The notes under the pieces are model-generated. The model was given only the letters and a program-made list of their open reading frames with translations, had not been told where the DNA came from and made no database searches. Position numbers and translations under genes: made by a program. DNA of 64,000 nucleotides from a virus. This document shows, piece after piece, positions 1,734 to 41,990 of this stretch (positions are counted from its first letter, which is position 1; each line of letters begins with the position of its first letter). The stretch is taken from positions 41,640 to 105,639 of the IMG/VR virus record IMGVR_UViG_3300026484_000436, one strand, 5' to 3'.

Positions 1734-2351
1734 TTATTTATAATCATTATACAAAATAGTTATTTCCACACTTGGAATTTCATTTGTAATAGGGTTATTT
1801 ATAAAGTATTTAACATTTTTTCCTTCTATCCACCAACCTGAAAATTGAGTTTCATCTATTTTTTTATTTTCAAAAAAAGGCAACCCATCCATTGAAGCAC
1901 CTATCGGTGGTATTTCAAATAAAAAACTATTTATCTTACCCATAACTTTTATATTATTAGAAATAGTTTTTAATTCTATATTATCATAAATTGAAATGTT
2001 ATTATAAAAATTAACTTTTTTATCTTTTTTAAATTTATAAACAATTTTTGAATACCCCACTTGTATTTTATTAGAGTCTTTTTTAAACATTTCATATAAT
2101 TCCCGTTTAATTATATATTGAGGTTTAAAACAAAAATTTGCCGCAGAAATAGATTTATAGAAAAATAAATCTTTTTCCTGAAATGTTTTTAGTTCGGGGT
2201 ATGGGAAGTCTATATTTTTCACTAATTTTAAGTTGAATTGATATCTATCTAATATATTATCATAAACTTTCTTTTTTAAATTATTTATGACATCTATTAA
2301 AGATAATAATTTTTCTGAATAATTAATCTTATTTTCATCTACTAAAATCAT
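1734..2351 (-). CDS. Tail-fibre-associated protein, paralogue of 2354..2977
   Basis: Shared IPPxGxSxxGxP...FSGWWIE motif; start moved to the ATG at 2351 behind GGAG. Confidence 0.55.
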   Translation of the reverse strand: MILVDENKINYSEKLLSLIDVINNLKKKVYDNILDRYQFNLKLVKNIDFPYPELKTFQEKDLFFYKSISAANFCFKPQYIIKRELYEMFKKDSNKIQVGYSKIVYKFKKDKKVNFYNNISIYDNIELKTISNNIKVMGKINSFLFEIPPIGASMDGLPFFENKKIDETQFSGWWIEGKNVKYFINNPITNEIPSVEITILYNDYK

Positions 2352-2353
2352 TT

Positions 2354-2977
2354 TTATCTCCAAATTAGGATTTTAAATGAAATTTTATCACATTTTCCTA
2401 ACCATTGTTCTTTATCTGTTTTTTTCAAAAATATCTTTATTTGATTATTTTCAATCCACCAACCTGAAAAATTTGTAACAACTCCATTTTTATTTAGTGG
2501 GAACCCATTTAATGATATACCTACTGGTGGTATTTGGGTAATTAATCCATTATCCCCACCATTTTTTTGAGCGCACTCATCAAGTTTCACAAGAATTTCC
2601 AAATATGATGGAGTATAATTGAGAGTAGCAAGTGTCCCATACCAGAAATCTTTAGAATTGTCATATTCAAGTTGTTTCCACTCAATTATTTCAGAAGCAC
2701 TTAATGGTTTCTTTTCATTCGCTTCTAAAATACTTTTTTTAATATCATCTATTAAAGGGCTCATATAATCCTTCATCGATTGTAAAAATTCTTCATAAGA
2801 ATGTCCATCAATCATAGAAGCATTTTTAGCATAATAAACAGATAATCTATTTCCATCATTATCTGTAACTATATTACCCACATTTTTTATGTTTCTTGCT
2901 GCATAATCAAATTCTTTTAAATTGTTAAGTGAATTTTCAATATCTTCAAGTTTATTATAAATATCTTGTATTTCCAT
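2354..2977 (-). CDS. Tail-fibre-associated protein, paralogue of 1734..2351
   Basis: Shared C-terminal motif; NASMIDGH fibre-like motif; start moved to 2977. Confidence 0.55.
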   Translation of the reverse strand: MEIQDIYNKLEDIENSLNNLKEFDYAARNIKNVGNIVTDNDGNRLSVYYAKNASMIDGHSYEEFLQSMKDYMSPLIDDIKKSILEANEKKPLSASEIIEWKQLEYDNSKDFWYGTLATLNYTPSYLEILVKLDECAQKNGGDNGLITQIPPVGISLNGFPLNKNGVVTNFSGWWIENNQIKIFLKKTDKEQWLGKCDKISFKILIWR

Positions 2978-3276
2978 TATAACTCCCATTTTTTAATAGA
3001 TCCAAAATCATTGAATAATTGGATAAATTCATCACTTTTTTCTATATCAAGATTGCTAAAATAATAATCCATTATTTTTTCGCAAGATTCTTTTGGTGTA
3101 TTTTCATTTATCTTGTCAATTATTTCCACAAGATAATTCATATCGTTAAATAATTTAATATCATTTTCAAGTAATTTTTCAAATTGTTTATTAACAGTTT
3201 CTGCTGTTAAAAAAACCTGTACAGGTTTTTTATCTTCATAAAATAAGAAGACATCTAAGTCATTAACAAAATTCAT
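2977..3276 (-). CDS. Small tail-fibre-associated protein
   Basis: FYE...LLENDIKL motif shared with neighbours; ATG at 3276 behind GGAGG. Confidence 0.5.
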   Translation of the reverse strand: MNFVNDLDVFLFYEDKKPVQVFLTAETVNKQFEKLLENDIKLFNDMNYLVEIIDKINENTPKESCEKIMDYYFSNLDIEKSDEFIQLFNDFGSIKKWEL

Positions 3277-3841
3277 ATTCTTCCTCCAAGAAAGTATTTT
3301 CACCTTGGCAAAAATCAAAAGGAACATTTTGATATAAAGATGATTCCGATATTATTGTGGCAGGATTTGTTCCATTATTATTTATATAAGGGTCTGGAAA
3401 AATACTTGGGTCATATGGCACTTTTGTTCCATCAGGTAGTAACACATATATTATTTTACCAGTCAAATCATCTTTTATATAAATTAAAGTATCTTCTGAA
3501 TTAAAAGTATTTGCTTCTTTAACAATTTTATTGATAAAACATTTTCCAGAATTGTCAAGGTACCACTTAAAATAGTTGAAAAAATCTTTTATTTTATCTA
3601 ATTCATTGCCGATTATTTTAAACTCTTTTTCTATGAAATAATCGAATGTGATTCTTTCATCTTCTGCTTTTTTCATTTTTTTCTTAACAATCTCTAAATT
3701 TTCGTCAAGTATGAAATCATTTTCAAGAAGATGATTAAATTTTTCAAAATAATTTTCGTCATTAAAAGAAGAGAATGAATTTTGGGAATTTCCTGTATAG
3801 TAAAACTCAAAATCCTCTAAATTCCATTTTAATTTTTTCAT
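3263..3841 (-). CDS. Tail-fibre-associated protein
   Basis: 192 aa; FYYTG...LLENDFIL paralogous N-terminus. Confidence 0.5.
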   Translation of the reverse strand: MKKLKWNLEDFEFYYTGNSQNSFSSFNDENYFEKFNHLLENDFILDENLEIVKKKMKKAEDERITFDYFIEKEFKIIGNELDKIKDFFNYFKWYLDNSGKCFINKIVKEANTFNSEDTLIYIKDDLTGKIIYVLLPDGTKVPYDPSIFPDPYINNNGTNPATIISESSLYQNVPFDFCQGENTFLEEEYEFC

Positions 3842-3850
3842 TCAAATCCT

Positions 3851-4990
3851 TTAAAATAGTTTTACAATGCTATTTACCTCATCAATTACAACCCCTAAGG
3901 TATCTATTGTTTTTATAAGTGAAGTTTTACACATACCCGGATTTTCAAAATCTGGTTCAACATATCTTCCTCTTTTAACATCATTTGAAATTTTTACAAA
4001 AATCCTCCCAACTAATGCTATTTCAGAAGTATATTTTTTTGTATCTCTAAAATTTTCATTTAAAAGTATAGCATAACTATCCGACACTATCCCAAGAACA
4101 GGTCCATTTGTAAAAATCGTCCCTTCTGTTTTCTTACCAACTTGAAGTAATGTCCCAGGTTCATATTTTTTATCCGTTTCATAAACTTCTGCGATATCTG
4201 CTTCTGTTCTACTATAAAAATGCCCCACAATTCTTTGTGCATTTATTTCATATATTGGATTTTCAAGTGTCCCTATTTTTGATGAATCATTTTCCGGTAT
4301 TATTTTTTTAATTATAACATTTTCTGAGTTTAAAATCAACTTATTATTGGATTTTATTTCGAGATTATCATAAGGGGAATTCGAATTGAGTTCTAAAAGT
4401 AAAGTGTTTATACCATCTTCATTTTTTAATTTTAAATTACCATACACATTTGCTTCATCATTGATATACTCAAATAAAACCCCATTTGAATTATCTTCTT
4501 TTACTTTAAATTTTGCTCCTGTACCTTCTGTATTAAATTCAATCAATTCTTCTTTAAAAACATAACTATCCGATATTTGAAATTCATCCGTCTGTAAAAC
4601 ACCAATTTTGGCATTATTTATTTTTGCGATTGTACTTGTTAATGATGTCGTTATAAGGTCATTTGAAATAGACTTATTGGCAGTTGTATTTTCCACAATA
4701 ATTTCATCGGATATGACTTTTTGTATTTCTGCTTCTGTAGATGTTATTTTTGTGATTTCAGCAGTTGATGCTTCAATATAATCTAAAAAGTTTTTTTTAC
4801 TATAAATTGTGTCTATAGATAAGGTATTGTCAGAAAACACCTTTTCAATTTTTATTATTCTATCATCAAGATTGTTTAAATCATATTCTATTTGATTTAT
4901 TATTGAATTTAAAAAAGACGATGATAAAACTGTTCTTTGAGTTTTATCGTCCCCTTCATAAAATTTTGTAAGTGTTTTGTAAGGTATCAT
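3851..4990 (-). CDS. Tail fibre/spike with a C-terminal peptidase G2-like (intramolecular chaperone) domain
   Basis: ADIAEVYETDKKYEPGT...GIVS...IALVGR C-terminal motif. Confidence 0.65.
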   Translation of the reverse strand: MIPYKTLTKFYEGDDKTQRTVLSSSFLNSIINQIEYDLNNLDDRIIKIEKVFSDNTLSIDTIYSKKNFLDYIEASTAEITKITSTEAEIQKVISDEIIVENTTANKSISNDLITTSLTSTIAKINNAKIGVLQTDEFQISDSYVFKEELIEFNTEGTGAKFKVKEDNSNGVLFEYINDEANVYGNLKLKNEDGINTLLLELNSNSPYDNLEIKSNNKLILNSENVIIKKIIPENDSSKIGTLENPIYEINAQRIVGHFYSRTEADIAEVYETDKKYEPGTLLQVGKKTEGTIFTNGPVLGIVSDSYAILLNENFRDTKKYTSEIALVGRIFVKISNDVKRGRYVEPDFENPGMCKTSLIKTIDTLGVVIDEVNSIVKLF

Positions 4991-5001
4991 TTATTTATCC
5001 T

Positions 5002-6171
5002 TTAAAGTTTCCAAAGGAGATTTACTAATGAATCTATTGCAGTATTATCATTATCTGAAACAGAAACAGTTATTTTCGTAATGTTTTCATCGTCATCTTT
5101 TGAAAATTGTAAAAAAACATTTTTTGGACTATCGTCAATTATGCCTGTTAAAATCATAAATGAAGTAGTTTCCAATTTATCAGTATCTATATTTATATCC
5201 ATAATTCCTGCATCATCTCCACTAAAAGAAATTGCCGTATCATCAATTTTTTCACTTTTAAAAATGACTTTGCACTTGTCTTTATCGCTGGTATCTATAA
5301 AAAATTGAATTTCTCCTGTAATGGGTTCTATTTTTGAATGATTTATATCTATTGATGTATCATCATTATATAAAACATTGTCTTTAATTATGGCATTATA
5401 TTTTTTTTCTATAAGATTTTCAGAATCAGTTTTCATAAAACCATCTTCATAAATAACATTTTTATCTAAATCTAATAAAGTATCATCATTATTTTTTAAA
5501 ACATTATCATCAATAATAACATTTTTATCAAGTTCTAAAATAACTTTATCATTTACAATTAAATTGTTATCATTTTTAATGACATTTTTATCCAGATCTA
5601 ATAAAGTATCATCATTATTTTTTAAAACATTATCATCAATAATAACATTATCTTTAACAATTTTGTAAAATTCATTTCCATCTTCATCAAGCATATAAAT
5701 ATAATTATCATCATTTATATATAAATTTATATTTTTTTGGGCATTTTCATTTATTTTATTTATTTCAAGTTTTATATTTCCATCATTATCAACTAAATTA
5801 TCCCCATCTAATTTGGCATTATTTGGAATTATTATTTCATTTACTACATCGTTTCCATCATCATCAATGGTTATAAACGACACATTTCCCGTATCTTCAT
5901 CAAGGTATAAATTGATGTATTTTTTTATTTCTTCTGGATAAGTATTGAAATCCACAATAATATCATTAGAAGTTTGTAATACATTATCAACTATTTTTCC
6001 AATCCTTTTTAAATCATCCAATGAAGGGTATAAAGACCCTAAATCAAAAGTTGTTTGGATTAAAGGGGCCAAATCAAAATAATTTTCGTTTTTTGAAGTC
6101 TTTATTTCATCCGCTTCTATTTTACCTTTTTTCTCATAATCAGGTTTTGCGAATCTACTATTTATACTCAT
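5002..6171 (-). CDS. Asp/Asn-rich tail-fibre-like protein with internal repeats
   Basis: 389 aa; 21/42-aa repeats (NVIIDDNVLKNNDDTLLDLDK). Confidence 0.55.
   Translation of the reverse strand: MSINSRFAKPDYEKKGKIEADEIKTSKNENYFDLAPLIQTTFDLGSLYPSLDDLKRIGKIVDNVLQTSNDIIVDFNTYPEEIKKYINLYLDEDTGNVSFITIDDDGNDVVNEIIIPNNAKLDGDNLVDNDGNIKLEINKINENAQKNINLYINDDNYIYMLDEDGNEFYKIVKDNVIIDDNVLKNNDDTLLDLDKNVIKNDNNLIVNDKVILELDKNVIIDDNVLKNNDDTLLDLDKNVIYEDGFMKTDSENLIEKKYNAIIKDNVLYNDDTSIDINHSKIEPITGEIQFFIDTSDKDKCKVIFKSEKIDDTAISFSGDDAGIMDINIDTDKLETTSFMILTGIIDDSPKNVFLQFSKDDDENITKITVSVSDNDNTAIDSLVNLLWKL
5456..5649. repeat. In-frame direct repeat, about 68 bp x2, offset 126 bp
   Basis: 5456-5523 vs 5582-5649 are near-identical. 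Confidence 0.85.
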
Positions 6172-6182
6172 TTTAAAACTCC

Positions 6183-7271
6183 TTAAATTTTTACAAGAAC
6201 TTCATCAGTTCCATTTTCAAGTGCTACACCAATAAGTCTTAAATTTTCAGGCATTGTCAAGATATTATCAATTGCTTTACCTTTTCCATTTGAATCAGCA
6301 ATAATATATTGTCCTTTTTTCGCTTCACCTATGATTTTAACTTTTACTTTTCCTTTTAGTGCAATAAGTGCTGGATTATCATAATTTCCTTTACCAAGGA
6401 TTGTCCCAGGTTTTTCAGAAATTACACCTAAAAGTTTTCCACCATTATATAAAGTCCCATTGACATTAAGATTTTCAGCAACTTCCAAGATTGTACCAAC
6501 TTCATACTTTTCATCAGCAGAATAGTACTCAGCAATATCCTCTCCTACAGTTTTAAAATCTCCTGCCATAACAGTTGAATTATCAACTTCTCCATCTGCA
6601 TAAAATAAAAAAGTGTTAGGTGTGTCGCCATCGTTTGAATCATCATAAACAATCGCATCTTGTAAATCTTGACTTCCAAAATTATAATACGATTTTAAAG
6701 CATAAAATGCACCCGTTCTGATAAAAGAATTATCATAGTTATCTCCAACTTTAAAGTCTAAATAATCTACTTTTTCTTCATCAACTGTATCTTCAATAAC
6801 TTCAAGTTTAGAGTCAATATCATTAAATTTTATTTCTTCTACATTTAAAGTATGTATTTTTAATTTTTTAAGATTCCCATCGTCATCTTTTAAAGTCATA
6901 GTTTCATCATTATAATCTAGATTTAAACCATTTAATTTTATTTTTATTGTATCGATTTTATAAGAATCTATAATAATCTTATTTTCATCGTCTTTATTCC
7001 TTAAAGTGATTTTTTCACTGCCACTTTTTAAAATAGCGCCATTAAAATTAAAGGTTCCAGACACATCAAAATCATTAGTTTTTAAGTGTGAAGCAGTTGA
7101 GTTGCCACTCTCAAAATCTTTAATTGTTTGGTCTAATTTTTCATCGTTTTTTTCTAATTGTTTTAAGGGTAAATTCAGGTTCGTCCCATTAAAAGGTGTA
7201 TATCTGTCAGGGTCTGAACCTTCATACCACAAAAACATATTATCTTGTGTGTAAGGTATATAATTTGCCAT
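6183..7271 (-). CDS. Tail fibre/spike with a C-terminal peptidase G2-like domain, paralogue of 3851..4990
   Basis: EDIAEYYSADEKYEVGT...GVISEKPG...IALKGKV. Confidence 0.65.
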   Translation of the reverse strand: MANYIPYTQDNMFLWYEGSDPDRYTPFNGTNLNLPLKQLEKNDEKLDQTIKDFESGNSTASHLKTNDFDVSGTFNFNGAILKSGSEKITLRNKDDENKIIIDSYKIDTIKIKLNGLNLDYNDETMTLKDDDGNLKKLKIHTLNVEEIKFNDIDSKLEVIEDTVDEEKVDYLDFKVGDNYDNSFIRTGAFYALKSYYNFGSQDLQDAIVYDDSNDGDTPNTFLFYADGEVDNSTVMAGDFKTVGEDIAEYYSADEKYEVGTILEVAENLNVNGTLYNGGKLLGVISEKPGTILGKGNYDNPALIALKGKVKVKIIGEAKKGQYIIADSNGKGKAIDNILTMPENLRLIGVALENGTDEVLVKI

Positions 7272-7285
7272 TTTAATCCTTTTTC

Positions 7286-7840
7286 TTATTTATCGCAAGT
7301 TTTCTTAAAATAAATTGTCCAACTAAATTTTAGTTTCATTTCATAGTTTTTGTATATTGCTGCTCTCGTTTTTCTTGAAAACATTATATTTTTGTCATCC
7401 TTATCGTCATTACCTGTATTTTTATAAACACTTTCTGATAATAGACCATATTCTGTAATAAGTTGTTCTCCATTTGAACCATTACATTCGTCTTTTTCAA
7501 GGACGATTGAAAAAGTTACACCATAACCACCCACATCTTCGTAAGTTTCAACATCAATTTCTTTTCTAAAAACTTCATTTTCTAATTCGTAGTCATTACA
7601 ACTTGGTGGTCTAACATTTTTTAAATCATCGTTCTCATCAAGATTCATATCACCCAATACTATATATTTAATACCTTTTATGTCTTCGCCTGCCATAAAT
7701 CTACTAAATAAATAACCACTATCTGAAACGATTAAGTTTTTTTCTTGAAAAATTGTTTCAATTACATTGTCTTCATCGTCAAGTCTTTCACACTTGACAA
7801 TACCCATCATATTCTTTTTAGTAAATATATCTAAAAGCAT
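7286..7840 (-). CDS. Baseplate/tail-fibre attachment protein
   Basis: KNLIV-x2-G...ITEYGL...FSRK...WTIYF pattern typical of myophage tail-collar proteins; start moved to 7840 behind AAAGGA. Confidence 0.55.
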   Translation of the reverse strand: MLLDIFTKKNMMGIVKCERLDDEDNVIETIFQEKNLIVSDSGYLFSRFMAGEDIKGIKYIVLGDMNLDENDDLKNVRPPSCNDYELENEVFRKEIDVETYEDVGGYGVTFSIVLEKDECNGSNGEQLITEYGLLSESVYKNTGNDDKDDKNIMFSRKTRAAIYKNYEMKLKFSWTIYFKKTCDK

Positions 7841-39211: not shown

Positions 39212-40324
39212 TTAAGAAATATAAGCAGAAGTTAATCTTTTAATTTCTTCGATTCCACCATCAACGACACCTGATGAAGCAATACCACAAGCAGCAACAA
39301 TACTTCTCATAGTTAATTTTCCTTCACCTTCTTTCATCGCTTCAAGTAATTCTTCTTTATCTTCTAGTTCCATTTCAGGTACGATAAATTGTAATAATGA
39401 TTTAATTCTTTCTACAACATCTTCTCTTCTTAAGAAAACATCCATAAAAACACTTCTTGATTTAATTGCTGCTAAATCAGGGTCTTTAAGAAATTTATCA
39501 CCTGGTAAATTCGAAACGAAAATTATTTGACTATCAAATTCAAATGATGAAGGTAGTCTATATTTTTTACTTCCAATTAAACCGATTTTATCAGGGTCCT
39601 GAAATGCTAAATCTAAATTTGCCAAATATTCTTTTGCCTTTTCAGGCTCTAACCCATCCACATTTAAAGTCGCATTTGAAAACCAACTGATTTCTCTCAT
39701 TGTATCTGTATCCATTGCAGATTTAAGCATATTTATACAATCTCTATCGTTTAAGAATCCATCTGAATCATCGAAAACAATCGTCATATTTTTTCTGTAT
39801 TGGTATAAAATTCTATATAATCCTAATGCTGTTCCTTTAAGTCCTTTAAAATGTTTCCATTTCGCATCAGGTCCTTTTGGATCTCCATACATTTCTTTAA
39901 GTGCCTTAGACACATGGAATGTGTTATGATGAACGAATCCATAAGCATCACTATAAAGGTGATTATCAGTGTTAATAGCAATATCATATACAACTTGTTT
40001 AGGTAATTCTTCAATTTCAACGATTTTTTCGTTTCCATTTCTATTAACTAATACATCCTCTACTTTTATTTCACTTGTATCTGTCATTCCTCTTTCAGTT
40101 AAAATTCCGTGTGCTTTAGCAACTTCAACCACTTTTCCTGTTTCAGTAGTGATTTTTAAAACTTCATATTCTTTAATAATCATTCCTGAAATTTCCTGAA
40201 ATTCTCCATTTTCATCTTTTATTTTGAATTTTGTTTTAGGTGAATACATTTCATCAACTTTGAAAATATGCCCTTCTTTTTCAGAAATAGTATCAAAAAT
40301 TTCTTTAAAATTCATTTGTCTCAT
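39212..40324 (-). CDS. Split-intein C-fragment (134 aa) fused to the C-terminal part of a P-loop ATPase
   Basis: Intein blocks B (VAKAHGILT), F (VYDIAI..DNHLY) and G (GFVHHN|T), followed by Walker B IVFDDSD; own AAAGGA SD. Confidence 0.9.
   Translation of the reverse strand: MRQMNFKEIFDTISEKEGHIFKVDEMYSPKTKFKIKDENGEFQEISGMIIKEYEVLKITTETGKVVEVAKAHGILTERGMTDTSEIKVEDVLVNRNGNEKIVEIEELPKQVVYDIAINTDNHLYSDAYGFVHHNTFHVSKALKEMYGDPKGPDAKWKHFKGLKGTALGLYRILYQYRKNMTIVFDDSDGFLNDRDCINMLKSAMDTDTMREISWFSNATLNVDGLEPEKAKEYLANLDLAFQDPDKIGLIGSKKYRLPSSFEFDSQIIFVSNLPGDKFLKDPDLAAIKSRSVFMDVFLRREDVVERIKSLLQFIVPEMELEDKEELLEAMKEGEGKLTMRSIVAACGIASSGVVDGGIEEIKRLTSAYIS
39923..40324 (-). mobile_element. IntC of an atypically split mini-intein
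   Basis: Ends His-Asn with +1 Thr; no endonuclease domain. Confidence 0.9.
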
Positions 40325-40436
40325 TTATAATTCCTTTGTTTATTTTTTACTTTTATGCCAAAAACCTACCAAAAAATTGGACAGGTTTCCAATTTACCAT
40401 TTTTTAAATTTGTTATCTTGTAGATAAAACCCAAAA

Positions 40437-41270
40437 TTATAATCCTTCAACCTCAAGAACCATATTTTCAGATCCACATTTTCCCACACCTGCCATTCCT
40501 GCTACTATCAGACCTTTTTGTGCTCCTGTCGCAACAACTTTTACAAGAATTTCAATATCTTTAAAAATAAGTTCAGGGTCTGCATATTTTCTTTCTGCTA
40601 ATTTTTTCTCAGCAGTTTTCATTTGTTCTGTAATTGAATTATCTTCAGCAGAACCTTTTGTGATTTTGAATGATTTATATTCATCGTCGTCCCAAACACC
40701 TTCATCTTTCATAATTTTTTTAAGTTTTTGAGCAGAACTTCCACCTTGCATTGGGTCAATACCTTTTGCTATCGCATAAGCATTTATTTTTTTGTTTAAT
40801 TTAGGATTAAACTCTTCATTTACACTTTCTCCAATCGAAGCAGAATTATTTTCAAGTGCATCTTTAATTACACCAACCACTTCCACGATATTTAACCAAT
40901 CAGGAATATAAATTGTTTGTGAGGGTTGTCCGAATGATGAACTTCCATCAGGTCTCCAAAAATCGACTCTATTTACACTAAATTTATTTTTTAAACCTTT
41001 CGCTTTTGTTTTTCTATTAACAAATCCAAATCTAATCATATATCCATTTTTTGAAAGATATTGAAAACCTACACCTTTTTCTCCATCGCTACTTGTAAAA
41101 TCATTTTTGAAAAACGAATCTGTCATTTTTTTAAATTTACCAAATTTACTTTTTGAAAATAAACTTGCTAAAAGTTCTGAAACTTTTAATAGATTTTTTT
41201 CACTGAACGCTTCGTTTAAATACCCTTTCGAACTTAAACCTTTTGCTTCTAAAATAACATCTTTAAGCAT
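40437..41270 (-). CDS. N-terminal part of the P-loop ATPase plus a 13-aa split-intein N-fragment
   Basis: Ends LIVAGMAGVGK|CGSENMVLEVEGL*: a Walker A interrupted after Lys by intein block A. Confidence 0.9.
   Translation of the reverse strand: MLKDVILEAKGLSSKGYLNEAFSEKNLLKVSELLASLFSKSKFGKFKKMTDSFFKNDFTSSDGEKGVGFQYLSKNGYMIRFGFVNRKTKAKGLKNKFSVNRVDFWRPDGSSSFGQPSQTIYIPDWLNIVEVVGVIKDALENNSASIGESVNEEFNPKLNKKINAYAIAKGIDPMQGGSSAQKLKKIMKDEGVWDDDEYKSFKITKGSAEDNSITEQMKTAEKKLAERKYADPELIFKDIEILVKVVATGAQKGLIVAGMAGVGKCGSENMVLEVEGL
40440..40478 (-). mobile_element. IntN (13 aa) of the split intein
   Basis: Cys1 plus block-A-like CGSENMVLEV. Confidence 0.85.
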
Positions 41271-41318: not shown

Positions 41319-41990
41319 TCAAATATTTATGTTTATAATCTCATTTTTCTCATAAAAATCTGACTTGACATTCAATAAGTCTGCGATTTTTTGAATTTCA
41401 TTTTTATTTACCTCATTTAACCAATAAATTTTTTGAATTTTAAAATTTGTCATCAAACATTCATTATAGTTTGTTTGAATGTTTTCTTTTATAAATTTAT
41501 TAAAAATTTTGTACCCACCCTCATCCAACCAATCAAGTATTCTATTATAATAAGTTTCAAGTGGATTATCACTTTCTAATGCTTTTTTTGAAAAACCACT
41601 TAAAAAGAAATTTAATTTTTTGCCAGCAGGAAAATCCGTTTTTATCCATCTTCTTCCTTGTGTATCAGGAAAAGTATATAAGTCAGCATTACCTTCAAGA
41701 ATACAATCACCTTTAATTTTCACAAGAATAGGAGTACCACTTGAAATAACAGGTAATTTCATCAGATCATTTCCACCCTTAGAAAACCCAGAAATAGTTT
41801 TATCTGTTTTTTGTATTTTTGCTAAATCTTTGATATAACTATTTGTAGTCAAGTGATAACATTCTTTATCTTCAATTAGATAACCCAATTCTTCAGACAT
41901 TTCCTTAAAAAATGGTATAAAGTTATTTTTAATTAAAAAAGTTTCATCATATTGTTTAGTTGCCATTTTTTCGAGGATTTTTTTAAGCAT
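41319..41990 (-). CDS. Hypothetical protein with an MLKKILE leader; paralogue of 60392..61336
   Basis: DLYTFPDTQGRRWI vs DIWTKFDSQGRRWV; start moved to 41990 (GGAG SD, overlapping the upstream stop). Confidence 0.65.
   Translation of the reverse strand: MLKKILEKMATKQYDETFLIKNNFIPFFKEMSEELGYLIEDKECYHLTTNSYIKDLAKIQKTDKTISGFSKGGNDLMKLPVISSGTPILVKIKGDCILEGNADLYTFPDTQGRRWIKTDFPAGKKLNFFLSGFSKKALESDNPLETYYNRILDWLDEGGYKIFNKFIKENIQTNYNECLMTNFKIQKIYWLNEVNKNEIQKIADLLNVKSDFYEKNEIININI

Follow-up and report, generated by a model that had tools for sequence, protein, structure and literature searches.

A probable naturally split intein with a 13-residue N-terminal fragment in the Walker A motif of a T4-like phage ATPase

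Introduction

P-loops are known hot spots for inteins (PMC4760082). For natural inteins that are split at an atypical position, the published lengths of the N-terminal fragment (IntN) range from 15 to 37 amino acids (aa), with 16 aa for VidaL and a 'record-short' 15 aa for PolB16 (PMC13014065, PMC10189870). Here we describe a fractured gene in a 64,000-nucleotide (nt) stretch of viral DNA, referred to as the window (positions 41,640 to 105,639 of IMG/VR record IMGVR_UViG_3300026484_000436; coordinates below are those of the window). The gene encodes a P-loop ATPase similar to NrdC.10 of phage T4 and is broken between the Lys and Thr of its Walker A motif (GxxGxGK/T, the slash marking the junction here and below). 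In all likelihood, the break is due to a natural, atypically split class-1 intein, with an IntN of 13 aa and a C-terminal fragment (IntC) of 134 aa, in an uncultured, AT-rich, T4-like phage.

The closest described system is VidaL (16-aa IntN; structure 6VGV). Like the window intein, it is a natural split intein broken directly after beta-strand 2, the position known as S1, with a long IntC that starts at helix alpha1 (PMC13014065). It is likewise dependent on Cys1, and its insertion context is P-loop-like, being G/SGK for VidaL (PMC10264447 supplement) and GK/T here. The folds are also similar, with a Foldseek TMt of 0.62 and a root-mean-square deviation (rmsd) of 1.7 A. The two inteins are nevertheless distant in sequence. 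On a VidaL sequence taken from the machine-read PMC10264447 supplement, in which small errors are possible and the IntN has 15 letters rather than the reported 16 aa, identity is 24% over 82 aa (pairwise E 0.002). A phmmer search of the PDB sequences with the window IntC misses VidaL. They differ further in the length of IntN (16 versus 13 aa), in the C-terminal junction (SHN/S versus HHN/T), and in that the VidaL IntC has Cys residues, whereas the window IntC has none.

PolB16 OarG, which also comes from phage-like metagenomic DNA, is a second natural intein with an atypical, S1-type split and a 15-aa IntN (PMC10189870). It differs in being cysteine-independent (Ser1/Ser+1, against Cys1/Thr+1 here), in its PolB polymerase host, as opposed to a P-loop ATPase, and in its 168-aa IntC, compared with 134 aa and a 13-aa IntN in the window. 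AceL-TerL, GOS-TerL and the 'fractured genes' of Dassa et al. (2009) are similar as T4-like phage genes broken by split inteins; among these, a terminase intein is broken at an unusual point, and its 122-aa C-terminal part has all motifs except N1 (PMC2677866). AceL-TerL and GOS-TerL are, however, split after helix alpha1 (position S2) and have IntNs of 25-37 aa (PMC13014065), and the ATPase locus in the window lacks the endonuclease gene of the 'fractured gene' layout, having only 112 nt between the halves and a different host protein. Finally, contiguous mini-inteins are known from P-loops at DnaB site b, MCM site a and RFC-S site a (Novikova et al. 2016). Most of these are cellular, whereas the one described here is viral, split, and from a predominantly split lineage.

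Results

Organization of the fractured locus

The locus consists of two open reading frames (ORFs) on the minus strand, over which the intein parts are divided and which have their own stop and start signals. ORF1 (40437-41270, 277 aa) comprises the N-extein (40479-41270), that is, the first 264 aa of the ATPase up to the Walker A residues G-M-A-G-V-G-K (40479-40499), followed by the 13-aa IntN CGSENMVLEVEGL (40440-40478); its C-terminus reads GLIVAGMAGVGK/CGSENMVLEVEGL before the stop codon (40437-40439). Cys265, directly after GVGK, is Cys1 of the intein (codon 40476-40478). ORF2 (39212-40324, 370 aa) opens with the 134-aa IntC (39923-40324), which contains no cysteine and includes the sequences AKAH, VYDIAINTDNHLY and GFVHHN, with the block B His72 at 40109-40111, the block F Asp114 at 39983-39985 and His133-Asn134 at 39923-39928. 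The 236-aa C-extein (39215-39922) then begins with Thr+1 (39920-39922) in the sequence TFHV, and extends through the Walker B motif IVFDDSD (39761-39781) to the stop codon at 39212-39214. IntC may be 131 rather than 134 aa in length, because it is the second Met of ORF2 (M4) that lines up with the start Met of homologues.

The spacer between the ORFs (40325-40436) is 112 nt of non-coding DNA with a guanine-plus-cytosine (GC) content of 24% and five, three and two stop codons in the three frames. Immediately before the ATG of ORF2 is an in-frame TAA, and 7 nt upstream of the ATG is an AAAGGA Shine-Dalgarno sequence (40332-40337); there is no endonuclease gene between the halves. A preliminary description of the locus had listed the coordinates of the two ORFs, the out-of-frame gap with its TAA and Shine-Dalgarno sequence, the intein blocks B, F and G within 134 aa, and the TFHV and Walker B sequences beyond them, all of which are present in the sequence as listed. 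Its assignment of Cys1 and Thr+1, a Cys-free IntC and a gap devoid of an endonuclease gene was also verified. Joining of the exteins gives GMAGVGK+T, in which Thr+1 completes GxxGxGK-T, and the predicted product of about 500 aa (264 + 236 = 500) agrees as arithmetic with the 496-501 aa of uninterrupted homologues.

No terminator-like sites were found in the region around the spacer, and none of the promoter-like sites listed on the strand of the gene falls within the spacer. The spacer matches no Rfam family, and its RNA folding is not unusual (z = -1.3). For these reasons, the two ORFs are probably co-transcribed. Two other explanations of the break were considered and rejected: an RNA-level element such as a group I intron or riboswitch, given the blank Rfam result, the unremarkable fold and the lack of a terminator-like site; and fusion of ORF1 and ORF2 by read-through or frameshifting, given the stops in all frames and a spacer length that is not a multiple of 3.

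The two halves derive from one gene

A PHROG profile search assigns both ORFs to the same family. Residues 209-265 of ORF1 match positions 59-118 of phrog_1250 (E 7e-4), and residues 135-219 of ORF2 match positions 118-198 (E 6.6e-23), the two matches adjoining at the single profile position 118. The N-extein is also matched by phrog_34574. A protein search turned up homologues without an interruption (P0002, P0005 and P0008); at the point of GK ... HHN/TFH in the window, their sequence is G-x-GK-TFH. P0002 is a 501-aa protein with the sequence GVGK-TFHV, as in the uninterrupted homologues reading GVGKTF that the preliminary description had proposed to look for. The N-extein aligns with its residues 1-264, and the C-extein is 93-94% identical to it.

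The locus of P0002 (L150) was obtained from a metagenome scan; its synteny with the window extends over ~9 kb, and the nt identity is 82-86%. Window positions 43487-40479 align with L150 positions 1781-4793, and window positions 39925-37222 with L150 positions 4790-7478. The sole large difference within the gene is a segment of 556 nt (39923-40478, minus strand), consisting of IntN, stop codon, spacer and IntC, which is missing in L150 exactly between the K and T codons: the alignment runs to the end of the Lys codon and picks up at the Thr codon. The two loci represent a presence/absence polymorphism, as expected of a mobile intein. The claim of the preliminary description that a split intein lies within Walker A at GK/T is borne out by this insertion and by the phrog_1250 junction, and as a sequence pattern the coincidence of the PHROG meeting point with the exact K/T insertion is far beyond chance. 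Relative to L150, the N-extein shows a ratio of nonsynonymous to synonymous substitution rates (dN/dS) of 0.18 and the C-extein one of 0.07, with a dS of ~0.5 in both, which indicates purifying selection on both halves.

Intein identity, fold and catalytic residues

The inserted segment has the features of a class-1 intein: Cys1, the block B His, the block F Asp, the penultimate His and terminal Asn, and Thr+1. Block B is AKAH, with Ala at the Thr position of the TxxH-type motif, and the block F and G residues are VYDIAI...NHLY...GFVHHN/T. His72, Asp114, His133, Asn134 and Thr+1 are retained by every one of 11 homologues that bear an IntC, and removal of the insert restores a conserved host motif, GVGK-TFHV, as in L150/P0002. 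In a phmmer search of PDB sequences, IntC matches the inteins Npu DnaE (E 6e-4) and gp41-1 (E 1.4e-3).

ORF2 was modelled with AlphaFold2 from 11 homologues and without the 13-aa IntN; the model has a mean predicted local distance difference test score (pLDDT) of 79.5 and shows first a helix at residues 6-17 and then beta structure. Among the Foldseek matches listed against the PDB, all are inteins, apart from one intein-like BIL2 domain, with a probability of 1.00; examples in addition to VidaL are P. horikoshii RadA, Npu DnaE, and gp41-1 (TMt 0.69, rmsd 1.8 A). The C-terminal part is thus predicted to fold as a HINT (horseshoe) domain.

Short N-terminal fragments in the same ATPase clade

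Through pattern scans of IMG/VR and one metagenome scan, N-halves were obtained for four relatives in the same ATPase clade. After GK, and before a stop codon, they end in CVAGNTMVEVQGL (P0021, 13 aa), CLGSETQIPVFGL (L102, 13 aa), CVYEDTKITVEM (L112, 12 aa) and CFCGETEMDVEFPL (L111, 14 aa). A short IntN of 12-14 aa is therefore found in five diverged sequences of the clade, with N-half identities of 24-42%, and Cys1 and Val10 are invariant in all five tails. Further C-halves with the same start (P0003-P0014) are 31-48% identical. A profile search for additional N-halves yielded the protein of L112 alone, and a regular expression for ORFs with a GK-C-tail found none in 80 ATPase loci, most of which are uninterrupted.

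The break recurs at this position in contigs that are independent and come from other samples, where ~50-60 nt or an endonuclease gene separates the halves. In L111, a 361-aa ORF between the halves (L111:4464-5549, plus strand) matches NUMOD3 and DUF559/REase_MTES_1575 (Vsr-like), and is probably a free-standing homing endonuclease; this locus has the 'fractured gene' layout of Dassa et al. The same architecture in L102, P0021, L112 and L111 indicates that the split is no accident of one assembly.

The contiguous relative L125 reads GVGK/CLAGTELVEVIINHGSPLTLPISELF... and aligns across the break, with the window IntN opposite CLAGTELVEVIIN of L125 and the break located between CLAGTELVEVIIN and ...LTLPISELF. 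From this alignment, the 13 residues of the window correspond to beta-strands 1 and 2, and ORF2 begins at the next helix. The split is of the S1 type (as defined in PMC13014065), which is the class of VidaL and PolB16.

In one further locus, a homologous ATPase gene (L152:5342-5628, plus strand) is broken after ...NMLKS by an insert of ~650 nt that holds a group I intron (RF00028; 66 bits, E 3e-16). Several kinds of self-splicing element have therefore gathered in this ATPase gene.

A wider family of P-loop inteins

A degenerate DNA pattern for H-x-Y-x4-G-x-x-H-H-N-T, run on IMG/VR, identified 67 loci, and in 67/67 the motif is followed by residues that normally come after a P-loop GK. Ten C-halves were scanned with Pfam, and in these the match to the host domain begins at about profile positions 12-38, just past the P-loop. 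Hosts identified by Pfam are an SF2 helicase (ResIII, DEAD, Helicase_C), a DnaB-like helicase, ClpX-like and ClpA/B-like AAA_2 ATPases, the gp44 clamp loader and an AAA_25 ATPase; additional hosts are the NrdC.10-like clade and terminase. This GK/T-specific lineage has at least seven types of ATPase as hosts and is split in about five of every six representatives.

Where the N-half is on the same contig, IntN is 12-14 aa in the NrdC.10 clade, 12 aa in a ClpX-like ATPase (L117), and 21-55 aa elsewhere, the longer forms having a linker or helix after beta-strand 2. The L117 gene (L117:7168-9587, plus strand) is split as GNSGTGK/CTAYETKIRVRM, followed by a stop codon, and has a 160-aa ORF of no known family between its halves. 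The preliminary description had suggested that 13 aa may be at or below the shortest natural IntN. The length is indeed under the published 15-37 aa, but it is not the natural minimum, given the 12 aa of L112 and L117.

Four loci are contiguous (L125, L081, L104 and L126). In a tree of 53 IntC domains, grouping is mainly by host protein, and the window falls beside L102, L111 and L112. Two gp44 clamp-loader loci have nearly identical inteins, with tree branch lengths of 0.08 (L081) and 0.04 (L089); the L081 intein is contiguous (159 aa), and in L089 a stop codon in the linker that joins beta-strand 2 to helix alpha1 splits the intein and leaves an IntN of 30 aa. Their near-identity implies that switching between contiguous and split states is recent and easy.

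The P-loop also has a second insertion point, three residues to the N-terminal side of the first, with the arrangement GVGG/...HHN/TGKT (L019:1843-3942, L022:1744-3741). At this site, L019 is split, with a 13-aa IntN (CLSADTEINATME), and L022 is contiguous and reads GKGG/CFSGDTKINIV....

A search with IntC of 1.84 billion representative proteins (E <= 0.001) gave 120 matches, 117 of them with a recognisable C-terminal junction. In 98/117 (~84%), the junction is within the first 165 residues, which identifies these proteins as IntC-first and atypically split. Among the 117, 80 have Thr at position +1, 31 have Ser and 6 have Cys. Judged by these comparisons, the window intein is a member of a large, mostly split, P-loop-specific family and no one-off.

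Host protein, phage genome and a second split intein

In tblastn searches, the extein is matched by T4-type nrdC.10 genes at ~30% identity (E 1e-7 to 1e-14). These matches and those to phrog_1250, which carries no known function, agree with the earlier claim of a host other than a terminase or polymerase. A Pfam search of the extein gave no family over threshold, with AAA_16 matching weakly, and a search of PDB sequences matched no solved structure. The N-terminus of ORF1 (41247-41270, minus strand) is MLKDVILE, and homologues begin with MLKEVILE or MLKEIIE. The IMG/VR record is 105,639 bp long and estimated to be 47% complete; the window has a GC content of 26%. Neighbouring genes encode a thymidylate synthase and a homologue of RNA ligase/tail-fibre attachment protein.

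Elsewhere in the same genome, outside the window (G000:C1:21193-25972, L153), a related split intein interrupts the gene for the terminase large subunit at the P-loop. The N-half closes with GATGVGK/CLSKEQEIEIEMSEEDIKRFGLEEYIV and a stop codon, making a 27-aa IntN. The gap contains a 540-aa ORF, which has just a weak match to Mom, and a 211-aa ORF, as in the 'fractured gene' layout with ORFs in the gap; the IntC that follows ends in EIHHN/TKVST and is 33% identical to the window IntC. The presence of two related split pairs in one phage raises the question of their orthogonality, or of how cross-splicing might be avoided.

Discussion

The mechanism by which the ATPase would be rebuilt is an ordinary one. 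Both halves would probably be translated from one transcript, as the N-extein with its 13-aa IntN and the 134-aa IntC with the C-extein. IntN would contribute just the first two beta-strands and Cys1, and would dock into a largely pre-formed HINT fold in IntC, which opens with helix alpha1. Cys1 would then form a thioester, and Thr+1 would attack it; cyclisation of Asn134, aided by His133, would release the intein, and an O-to-N acyl shift would give an ATPase of 500 aa whose P-loop is intact. The artificially split intein M86 works with an 11-aa IntN (PMC13014065), and 13 aa is therefore chemically feasible.

Several observations weigh against this explanation. Firstly, Pfam Intein_splicing (PF14890) matches below its gathering score (13.2 bits against a cut-off of 35.8; E 0.081); because the profile expects a whole intein, we consider this a failure of sensitivity and not a contradiction. 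Secondly, the net charges of IntN (-3) and IntC (-9) leave no room for the canonical electrostatic steering; with both parts acidic, association must depend on completion of the beta-sheet and not on charge. Thirdly, the divergence of the exteins that underlies dN/dS may be partly older than the insertion. Fourthly, the evidence for the assembly of the gap consists of independent contigs. Lastly, co-folding of the two chains, which the preliminary description had proposed, gave a pass that must be read with caution. A complex prediction with the last 47 residues of ORF1 and the first 150 of ORF2 scored 0.53, compared with 0.02 for the best control, and this mark was reached by 58/80 solved complexes and 2/110 mismatched pairs. 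At scores of 0.60 or below, only 7/80 solved complexes passed, as did both mismatches. Agreement of contacts between runs was at least 64%, and the pLDDT of the partner was at least 46. We take the prediction as weak support, since the fold of the partner is itself uncertain and the pass may reflect likeness only, split-intein complexes having already been solved.

The foremost alternative is that the locus is a decaying pseudogene, in which a stop codon and a frameshift arose in a once-contiguous intein, leaving a dead ATPase and two ORFs that are remnants unable to splice. The existence of contiguous relatives (L125, L081, L104 and L126, as well as L022 at the neighbouring site) is compatible with such a history, as is the fact that, in pairs such as L081/L089, one stop in the linker suffices to split an intein. 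Decay would not, however, account for extein dN/dS values far under 1, the retention of all catalytic residues, an ORF2 provided with its own Shine-Dalgarno sequence and ATG, a short-IntN architecture that persists across five diverged sequences, or the IntC-first organization of 98 of the 117 scorable representatives of the family. We therefore regard decay as quite improbable.

Slightly less probable still is the idea that the halves function without splicing, with the intein parts serving as a non-covalent dimerisation module, or with one half acting alone (e.g., by N- or C-cleavage). In either case, the P-loop would stay in two pieces. There is a precedent in a split NrdA phage enzyme, reported to assemble non-covalently via domains derived from a mobile element (PMC3045599), and Thr+1, as the commonest +1 residue of the family (80/117), may also be counted in its favour. 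The location of the break inside GxxGxGK/T is difficult to reconcile with this idea, because a retained HINT domain of 147 aa would block nucleotide binding, and a mere dimeriser would not need C1, H72, D114, H133, N134 and T+1, all of which are invariant. An assembly or sequencing artefact, with the stop codon, 112-nt gap and frame change being errors within a contiguous mini-intein, is the least credible explanation, for although the record is a metagenome-assembled viral contig of limited estimated completeness, the gap is no point error, with its length, low GC content, stops in every frame and well-placed Shine-Dalgarno sequence, and contigs from other samples are broken at the same place.

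We thus strongly favour a natural, atypically split intein at this locus. What is moderately surprising, and useful, is not the mechanism but the dimensions of the intein and the size of its family. The sequence comparisons point to a new host and to an IntN shorter than any published one that we found, though not the shortest in public metagenomes. Few atypically split inteins have an IntN so short that it can be made by peptide synthesis, and such inteins are in demand for the semisynthesis and labelling of proteins. A natural IntN of 13 aa with relatives of 12-14 aa widens the range of 15-37 aa published up to March 2026; moreover, Cys1 is the only cysteine in IntN and IntC together, and consensus design could draw on many diverged homologues.

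A more tentative proposal, with the chances somewhat against it, is that the inteins of the NrdC.10 clade, with an IntN of 12-14 aa, Cys1 as the only cysteine, Thr+1 and no need for an endonuclease, are efficient trans-splicers, and that a break after beta-strand 2 is the prevailing and possibly selected state in T4-like phages. If these inteins do trans-splice efficiently, they would provide the shortest natural IntN tag known.

Finally, we note that one intein lineage has colonised the same GK/T position in many unrelated phage ATPases. The lineage switches readily between contiguous, split and split-with-endonuclease forms, and can occur twice in a single phage, as in the ATPase and terminase described here. 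If the split state is selected, it might serve, for example, as a switch that holds ATPases inactive until their halves meet.

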